From Candidatus Parcubacteria bacterium (GTDB lineage: Bacteria > Patescibacteriota > Patescibacteriia > Patescibacteriales > UBA12075), in NCBI GenBank assembly GCA_002869165.1, contig PKTK01000001.1, positions 93,006 through 157,005 of the forward strand: a DNA stretch of 64,000 bases, in the 5' to 3' direction. Numbering within the stretch: the first letter of the stretch is position 1; the number at the start of each line of letters is the position of its first letter. Positions 40,634-42,703 of the stretch are shown here, piece after piece. Below the pieces are notes generated by a model, which was not told the DNA's origin, searched no databases, and saw only the letters and a list, made by a program, of their open reading frames with translations. The position numbers and the translations under genes are program-made.

Positions 40634-42703
40634 ATGTTAATTTTATTACGACTAACAATTGAATATACATTTCGAAGAAGGGCTATTAATGTTGCTTATG
40701 TAAATGAGCTTCCTTTGAAGACCAAGACTAGAGTTATATCAATAAAAAATGTTATAAAATATAGCGCCTTGGCTTTGCTTTTTTTTCTTGTATTAGTTTG
40801 TTTGGAGGGAATAGCCTTGGGTACGGGAACATACTACTACCTTAGAGCAGGACTGCCTATCCCGAGTGAGGAATCAATGGCAGCCATGCCAGAATCTACC
40901 AAAATATATGATAGAAATGGTGAATTTCTTTATGAAGTGCATGGGGAAGTGAAGCGCAGATTTGTTCCATTGTCTGAAATTCCAATTTATTTACAGGAAG
41001 CTACTATTGCAATAGAGGATAAGAATTTTTATAAGCATTATGGCTTTGATCCTATAGCCATTCTTAGAGCCGCTTATATTAATTATCGTAATGGAGAGAT
41101 TAGTCAGGGTGCCAGTACTATAACACAACAGCTTGCTAGGACTTTGTTTTTGAATAACGAACAAGATTATCTAAGAAAGATAAATGAATTAATACTTGCT
41201 ATTGAAATAGAAAAAAGGTTTAGTAAAGACGAAATACTAGAAATGTATTTAAATAACATCCCTTATTGATCTGTTGCTTACGGTGTTAGTGCGGCCTCTG
41301 AAATATATCTTAATAAACCAGTTAATAAGGTAAATTTTATTGAAGCAGCGCATATTGCAGCTCTGCCCAAAGCTCCGAGTAACTATTCACCTTTTGGCTC
41401 AGGTAGATTTGCTTTAGAGCAACGTGCTAAGCAAGTTTTACTTGCCATGAAAGACGCAAACATTATAACTGAAGCTGAATATAATTATGCTATAGAGGAA
41501 AATGCTCCTGAATTTGTTGATTCTCCTACGCCTATCAAGGCACCACATTTTGTTTTTTATGTTTTGGACGAGTTGAATAAGGAGTATGGGGAAAACCGAG
41601 TAAAGAATGGTGGTTTAGATATAATTACGACCCTAGATTTAAATATGCAAGAAAAAGCAGAAGAAATTGTATCTGAGTGGGGTAATATAAATGAAGAAAA
41701 ATGGGGAGCAAAGAATGCATCTCTAGTGGCAATTGACCCTAGCACTGGTGAAATATTAGCGATGGTTGGGAGCAGGGATTATTTTGAACCAGATTTTGGT
41801 GCCTTTAATGTTGCTATTAGCCCAAGGCAACCGGGCTCATCTTTTAAGCCTTATGTTTATGCAACAGCCATTTCTCAAGGTTTGTCACCGGACGATTATG
41901 TGGTTGACAGTAGAACTAATTTTGCGGAGTACAATTATGGAGTAGAATATATTCCAAGAAATTATGATGGGAAATTTAGGGGATTGATAAGTATTAGAAA
42001 AGCTTTAGCAGGTTCATTGAATGTCCCAGCTGTTAAAATAATAGTTAAAGCAGGAATAGACAAGACAATTGATATGGCTGAAAGCCTAGGGATTAGTACT
42101 TTGGGTGATAGGAATCGTTTCGGTCCATCTTTAGCGCTTGGTGGCGGAGAAGTAAAACTCCTTGAACATACTTCTGCATTTGGTGTTTTTGCAAATGGAG
42201 GGGAAAAGGCACCCCTATCTTCAATACTGCGAGTGGAGAACGGCTTAGAAAAACCAATTTATGAAAGAAATTTAGTTGATAATAAAAGAATACTTGATGA
42301 AAGAACTGCTTATTTGATGAATGATATGTTGTCAGATGCAAGTGCTAGGGAGTATATCTTTGGTAGAAATTCAAAATTAGAAATTCCTGGCCATAGGGTA
42401 GCAGCTAAAACTGGTACTACTCAAGATTTTCATGATGCCTGGACTGTTGGTTATACCCCAAGTATTGCTGTTGGGGTCTGGTCAGGAAATAATGATAATA
42501 CAGAAATGAAAGAAGGGGCAAACGGATATGTGGTGGCAACACCAATATGGCGAGAATTTATGACATATGCTTTGTCAAAGGTAGCAAAAAAAGACTTTGT
42601 TGCCCCCAGTAATCTTGAATTTAGAAATATAGAAAACATGGAAAATGAAATTGTAAAAAATAAGCAAGTTATAGAGTTAAATATTGAATCTATGACAAAT
42701 TAG
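40634..42703 (+). pseudogene. Class A penicillin-binding protein (GT51 transglycosylase + transpeptidase) interrupted by one in-frame TGA at 41267-41269
   Basis: GT51 motifs [61 protein letters not shown]. Both track ORFs (40634..41269 and 41447..42703) share one frame and 41270-41446 has no stops. Transpeptidase motifs [8 protein letters not shown], KTGTT. Confidence 0.85.

Follow-up and report, generated by a model that had tools for sequence, protein, structure and literature searches.

On the forward strand of the window, by which we mean the whole stretch of 64,000 nucleotides analysed here, lies the complete gene of a class A penicillin-binding protein of the PBP1A family (40634..42703, 689 codons), whose reading frame has a single break in this assembly, a TGA at codon 212 (41267..41269, forward strand). 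The gene is seen as two open reading frames, 40634..41269 and 41447..42703, which a first-pass annotation made from the letters alone had described as sharing one frame with a single in-frame stop. This description is borne out by the distance between their starts (41447-40634 = 813 = 3x271) and by the translation of 40634-42706, which contains one internal stop and no other. A membrane anchor at the N-terminus precedes the GT51 transglycosylase domain and the transpeptidase domain of the product, whose domain matches were scored with glycine at the stop position (689 aa). The Pfam Transgly profile (PF00912) matches residues 96-272 (40919..41449 on the forward strand, a segment that contains the stop) from profile position 2 to 177 of 178 with E = 4.4e-59, and the Pfam Transpeptidase profile (PF00905) matches residues 363-643 (41720..42562, same strand) from position 2 to 298 of 299 with a value of 3e-25. 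The NCBIfam model TIGR02074, 'PBP1A family penicillin-binding protein', was scored on a database protein of the same sequence with Gly212 (P0125) and reached 533.8 bits against a curated cut-off of 508.75, covering positions 1-534 of 535. The GT51 motifs EDxxFxxHxG, GxSTxTQQ, RKxxE, KxxILxxYxN and RxxxVL are all present in the translation, as are the transpeptidase motifs SxxK (SSFKP), SxN (SLN) and KTG (KTGTT); the earlier statement that the remaining motifs of both domains are intact is therefore correct. Because the stop lies inside GT51, a true truncation would leave a fragment of 211 aa that lacks the end of this domain and the entire transpeptidase domain.

The surroundings of the gene have several features of their own. 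Long open reading frames lie nearly all on the forward strand, the GC skew is positive in all 4-kb bins (0.15-0.27) and the GC content ranges from 31 to 38%. A giant open reading frame of about 2,990 aa (29670-38633) takes up 14% of the window; it has LTD, Big_5 and CarboxypepD_reg domains according to Pfam, and its product is presumably a surface or adhesin-like protein. Between 48915 and 56313 four genes follow one another on one strand, encoding PrkA (AAA_PrkA and PrkA domains), a DUF444 protein (YeaH-like), SpoVR (YcgB-like) and a second protein with a PrkA domain; we take this row to be the PrkA/YeaG-YeaH-YcgB stress module, which would be unexpected for a small Parcubacteria genome. Many redox and oxidative-stress genes identified with Pfam are clustered at 766-2812, 16010-17516 and 27019-27303, and include a rhodanese, a MerT-like protein, an MsrA-MsrB fusion (PMSR and SelR), ferredoxin-like Fer4 proteins, a hemerythrin and an encapsulated-ferritin-like protein.

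The stop codon stands in place of an invariant glycine

In the window's assembly the stop occupies the position of the invariant glycine that follows GT51 motif 4 (KxxILxxYxN). The first-pass annotation had recognised a conserved glycine here from the motif, and the alignment of the 120 best homologues agrees: the column is glycine in all 120, and is flanked by an invariant proline (-2) and an invariant glycine (+5). At the DNA level the codon aligned to the TGA is GGN in 80 of 80 loci from GTDB species genomes, with GGC 26, GGT 21, GGA 17 and GGG 5 reported for the 68 motif-matched loci and glycine at the column established by tblastn for the remaining 12. Disabling changes in relatives had been named beforehand as the mark of an ordinary pseudogene; neither a stop nor any other disabling change occurs at the site in the 80 GTDB loci and 120 protein homologues. 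Patescibacteria homologues of the product are 44-68% identical to it, and those with names belong to Parcubacteria, Falkowbacteria and Doudnabacteria. The nearest GTDB locus among those returned is only 49% identical, so that the species representative of the lineage is not among the retrieved loci.

Other assemblies of the same genome read GGA

The two fragments are represented in NCBI by PLX27732.1 (C0583_00630, 211 aa) and PLX28161.1 (C0583_00635, 418 aa), which belong to one 'Candidatus Parcubacteria bacterium' MAG and lie on a contig of 584,723 bp. The exact product of the 211-aa fragment was absent from the contig index and was located by a protein-cluster look-up. The same 90% cluster contains P0125, an intact protein of 689 aa whose sequence equals that of the read-through translation with Gly212 and which is encoded on three further contigs: NODE_4 of ENA ERZ794999 (500,921 bp, coverage 23), a contig of JGI 3300007102 (369,492 bp) and a contig of Logan SRR5894289 (52,159 bp). 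The alignment of each of the three to the window is gap-free, and every one has G at 41267. A 98% identical strain (P0001, on a low-coverage contig of ENA ERZ794998) has GGA at the site too. The frame that is interrupted in the window thus runs through uninterrupted in four other assemblies, whose genome is the same or nearly identical, the TGA at 41267-41269 is private to the window's assembly, and the single GGA to TGA change that had been postulated to account for the stop is found as a G to T difference at 41267. When the DNA spanning the site was searched for as an exact pattern that left the variable base open (N), JGI metagenome contigs and GTDB genome contigs gave no matches; an independent copy of the one or the other allele is therefore absent from both collections. 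A literature search on the sample and accession identifiers found no paper.

The strain contig (L001, ERZ794998, coverage 3) has peculiarities of its own. It carries a G to T change at window position 41042, which turns HYGFD into HYCFD and replaces the invariant glycine of the EDxxFxxHxG motif by cysteine; given the threefold coverage, it probably belongs with the errors discussed below. Its PBP1A also lacks 15 nucleotides of the transpeptidase domain in frame (NKRIL, window positions 42280-42294). The 90% cluster of P0001 lists in addition two short peptides that bear no resemblance to a penicillin-binding protein, P0123 (35 aa) and P0124 (43 aa, MKKSSL.VFGVGPIYVITC...), and their membership looks like a clustering quirk.

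TGA is a standard stop codon in this genome

The coincidence of a UGA with an invariant glycine invites a reading in terms of recoding. Some Patescibacteria lineages use UGA for glycine; this is genetic code 25, known from Gracilibacteria and Absconditabacteria (SR1). The organism belongs to Patescibacteria and the stop falls exactly on the glycine, and both circumstances would suit a programmed decoding of UGA, whether by code 25, by read-through with a suppressor tRNA or by insertion of selenocysteine. The codon usage of the window speaks otherwise. Among the 17,499 sense codons of its 53 confident genes there is 1 in-frame TGA, against 1,387 TGA triplets when the two remaining frames are counted, and the same genes contain no in-frame TAA or TAG. 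Glycine is encoded by GGN in 1,112 of 1,112 cases, and the 2,987-codon open reading frame has no TGA within it. The first-pass annotation had already noted that TGA acts as a stop elsewhere in the window, and this stands: TGA terminates 8 of the 53 genes, read-through of these would add 0-29 codons before a TAA or TAG, one terminal TGA is directly followed by TAA, and an ABC-2 permease whose gene ends on TGA matches its Pfam profiles through to their final position. TGA is thus a standard stop in this genome. The named homologues include none from a lineage named as using code 25, and readings by code 25 or code 4 are ruled out by the codon counts together with the TGA-terminated genes.

Selenocysteine insertion or a structured read-through was also considered and rejected. 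The RNA fold of 41255-41340 is no better than that of shuffled sequences (z = -1.2), with the UGA paired in a long AU-rich stem, and the lack of a significant fold downstream of the UGA means that there is nothing like a SECIS element; moreover, the alignment column is glycine with no cysteine and the codon is GGA in other assemblies. ARAGORN finds no tRNA genes in the 64-kb window. Since the same genome reads GGA elsewhere, nothing needs decoding, and the position of the stop on a conserved glycine requires no recoding because GGA is the glycine codon that a G to T change at its first base turns into TGA. Of the three explanations offered at the outset, stop-codon read-through or local recoding is accordingly the one that fares worst, and we regard it as exceedingly improbable.

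Differences between assemblies are almost all of the G to T and C to A class

The TGA has company. The other assemblies were compared with the window over nearly its whole length and every difference was listed. Assemblies of the same genome differ at 46 sites, and 44 of these are G to T or C to A changes. The window has T or A where the other assemblies covering the site have G or C at 34 sites, 3 of which (14466, 58088 and 62986) are also found in the JGI assembly. At 10 sites it is the JGI assembly alone that has T or A for G or C, and the last 2 sites (21132 and 28213) are transitions. Derived states are therefore distributed as 31 private to the window, 10 private to JGI, 3 common to both and 0 in the ENA and Logan assemblies, which have 0 private differences altogether. 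That the alleles of the window are the derived ones follows from the related strain, whose contigs cover 9 of the window-derived sites and have G/C at every one. The spectrum differs from that of true strain divergence: between L001 and the window the substitutions are rich in transitions, and 7 of 44 belong to the G/T-C/A class, in both directions.

The 34 sites are evenly distributed along the window (KS p = 0.91), at about 1 per 2 kb or about 0.5 G to T/C to A changes per kb, and inspection of their sequence context by eye reveals no clear motif beyond an effect of AT-richness. Their consequences were compared with the expectation for random G to T/C to A changes in the same genes, the observed shares being taken over 26 coding changes with the start-codon loss left aside. 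Missense changes number 21 (81%, expected 78.5%), synonymous changes 3 (12%, expected 9.6%) and nonsense changes 2 (8%, expected 11.9%); to these are added 1 start-codon loss and 7 intergenic changes. The 34 changes in the window show no sign of selection, and their consequences are as random.

Besides the TGA in the PBP1A gene, two other changes disturb reading frames in the window. A TAA at 58087..58089 on the forward strand, where ENA ERZ794999 has TCA (Ser), is due to a C to A change at 58088 and is shared by the JGI assembly; it shortens a YgjP-like metallopeptidase (gene 57712-58089) from 191 to 125 aa, and the Pfam YgjP-like match in the window ends at profile position 146 of 207. At 29646..29648, also on the forward strand, a G to T change at 29648 yields ATT in place of the ATG of the other assemblies. 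This ATG (18793 in L008) is the called start of the gene for the 2,995-aa surface protein, and with its loss the open reading frame list of the window begins the gene at the GTG at 29670. The JGI 3300007102 assembly has private nonsense changes of its own, GAA to TAA at 15258, which shortens a gene of 128 aa to 97, and TAC to TAA at 45689, which splits a 436-aa gene into 160 + 251 aa. Both genes are whole in the window. The further 8 private changes of the JGI assembly are of the same G to T/C to A type.

Damage to the DNA or mutation in the organism

Two accounts of these transversions have to be weighed. The first, to which we assign a probability of roughly 85%, is that the TGA is an assembly-specific G to T error of the oxidative-damage type and that the PBP1A gene is intact and ordinary. 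The TGA would then be one among about 34 G:C to T:A transversions of the window's assembly and no feature of the organism's gene. Guanine would have been oxidised to 8-oxoG in the DNA or in the library, and since 8-oxoG pairs with A this would be read out as G to T or C to A. The exclusive G to T/C to A spectrum is the signature of 8-oxoG and is unlike natural divergence, which makes a chemical origin of this kind the one we infer. The errors most likely entered the consensus through damage to the DNA or the library, and such damage might have been carried into it because effective coverage or library complexity was low, or because the assembler chose it at mixed sites. The organism's real PBP1A, judged from its sequence, would with high probability have GGA (Gly212) and be an ordinary, intact bifunctional transglycosylase/transpeptidase. 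Of the explanations put forward by the first-pass annotation, the data uphold that of a sequencing or population variant, given GGA in four assemblies and a TGA that is one of 34 unselected G to T/C to A changes.

The second account takes the changes as real. A very recent nonsense mutation, which the annotation had likewise proposed, would in this case have arisen in a sub-population with a strong G:C to T:A bias (for example one without MutM, MutY or MutT), and PBP1A would be truly inactivated. The derived alleles do form part of a long contig's consensus, the pattern of 31 window-private and 10 JGI-private sites with three in common and none in ENA or Logan is tree-like, and the genome is AT-rich (33% GC), as G:C to T:A pressure would make it. 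The two transitions at 21132 and 28213 separate the MAG from the other assemblies and imply that the population or the reads behind it do not match theirs exactly; a different sample is possible. Shared reads with mixed sites would account for the three sites that the window and the JGI assembly have in common, and so would a small genealogy of real variants. Against a mutational origin stands the absence of purifying selection: of the 27 changes that fall in genes over the 64 kb, 2 are nonsense and 1 abolishes a start codon, and the changes strike residues that are invariant in homologues. Scaled to a genome of ~1 Mb, a size assumed for the group, this means that the dominant genotype would carry several hundred changes, with dozens of genes knocked out, a load hard to reconcile with viability. 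Furthermore, the JGI assembly has an independent set of changes, alike in spectrum and including nonsense changes of its own, and the ENA and Logan assemblies have none, a distribution that points to a property of the data or the assembly and not to a lineage. We therefore consider a recent inactivation of PBP1A in a mutator population unlikely. The fuller proposition, that a Parcubacteria sub-lineage without effective 8-oxoG repair has accumulated unselected transversions and has suffered a true knock-out of its class A penicillin-binding protein, appears to us very unlikely; if true, the metagenome would have captured a natural mutator or a lineage in decay.

Consequences for the use of the genome

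The anomaly is almost certainly a known kind of sequencing or assembly artefact and no new biology; with an intact PBP1A and the standard code there is no case for recoding or for the loss of a cell-wall gene. Its significance is of a practical nature. In the deposited MAG, and to a lesser degree in the JGI assembly, G to T/C to A errors fake stops, start losses and substitutions of conserved residues, which scans of the genome for pseudogenes, stop codons or genetic codes would flag as anomalies. At about 0.5 errors per kb, the other interrupted or split genes of the MAG deserve the same suspicion and a comparison with the ENA and Logan assemblies.

Comparison with known systems

Measured against the PBP1A family (TIGR02074; PF00912 and PF00905), the gene has all that its members have: both domains are full-length and the motifs and the membrane anchor are all there. 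The sole difference is the single TGA in the window's assembly. The likeness to code 25 of the Gracilibacteria and Absconditabacteria is confined to the coincidence of a UGA with a glycine position in a Patescibacteria genome; unlike in code 25, TGA terminates genes here, reading frames are free of it apart from this one case, and other assemblies of the genome have GGA at the position.

The closest parallel is provided by artefacts of library preparation, during which 8-oxoG is formed and gives rise to documented C>A/G>T errors (Costello et al. 2013, PMC3616734), for which a read-orientation bias is diagnostic. The changes in the window resemble these in that nearly all are G to T or C to A, and in being private to the assembly, evenly spread and blind to their consequences. 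They differ in one respect: the published oxidation artefacts sit at low allele fractions in the reads (PMC3616734), whereas here 34 of them stand in the consensus of a 584-kb contig.
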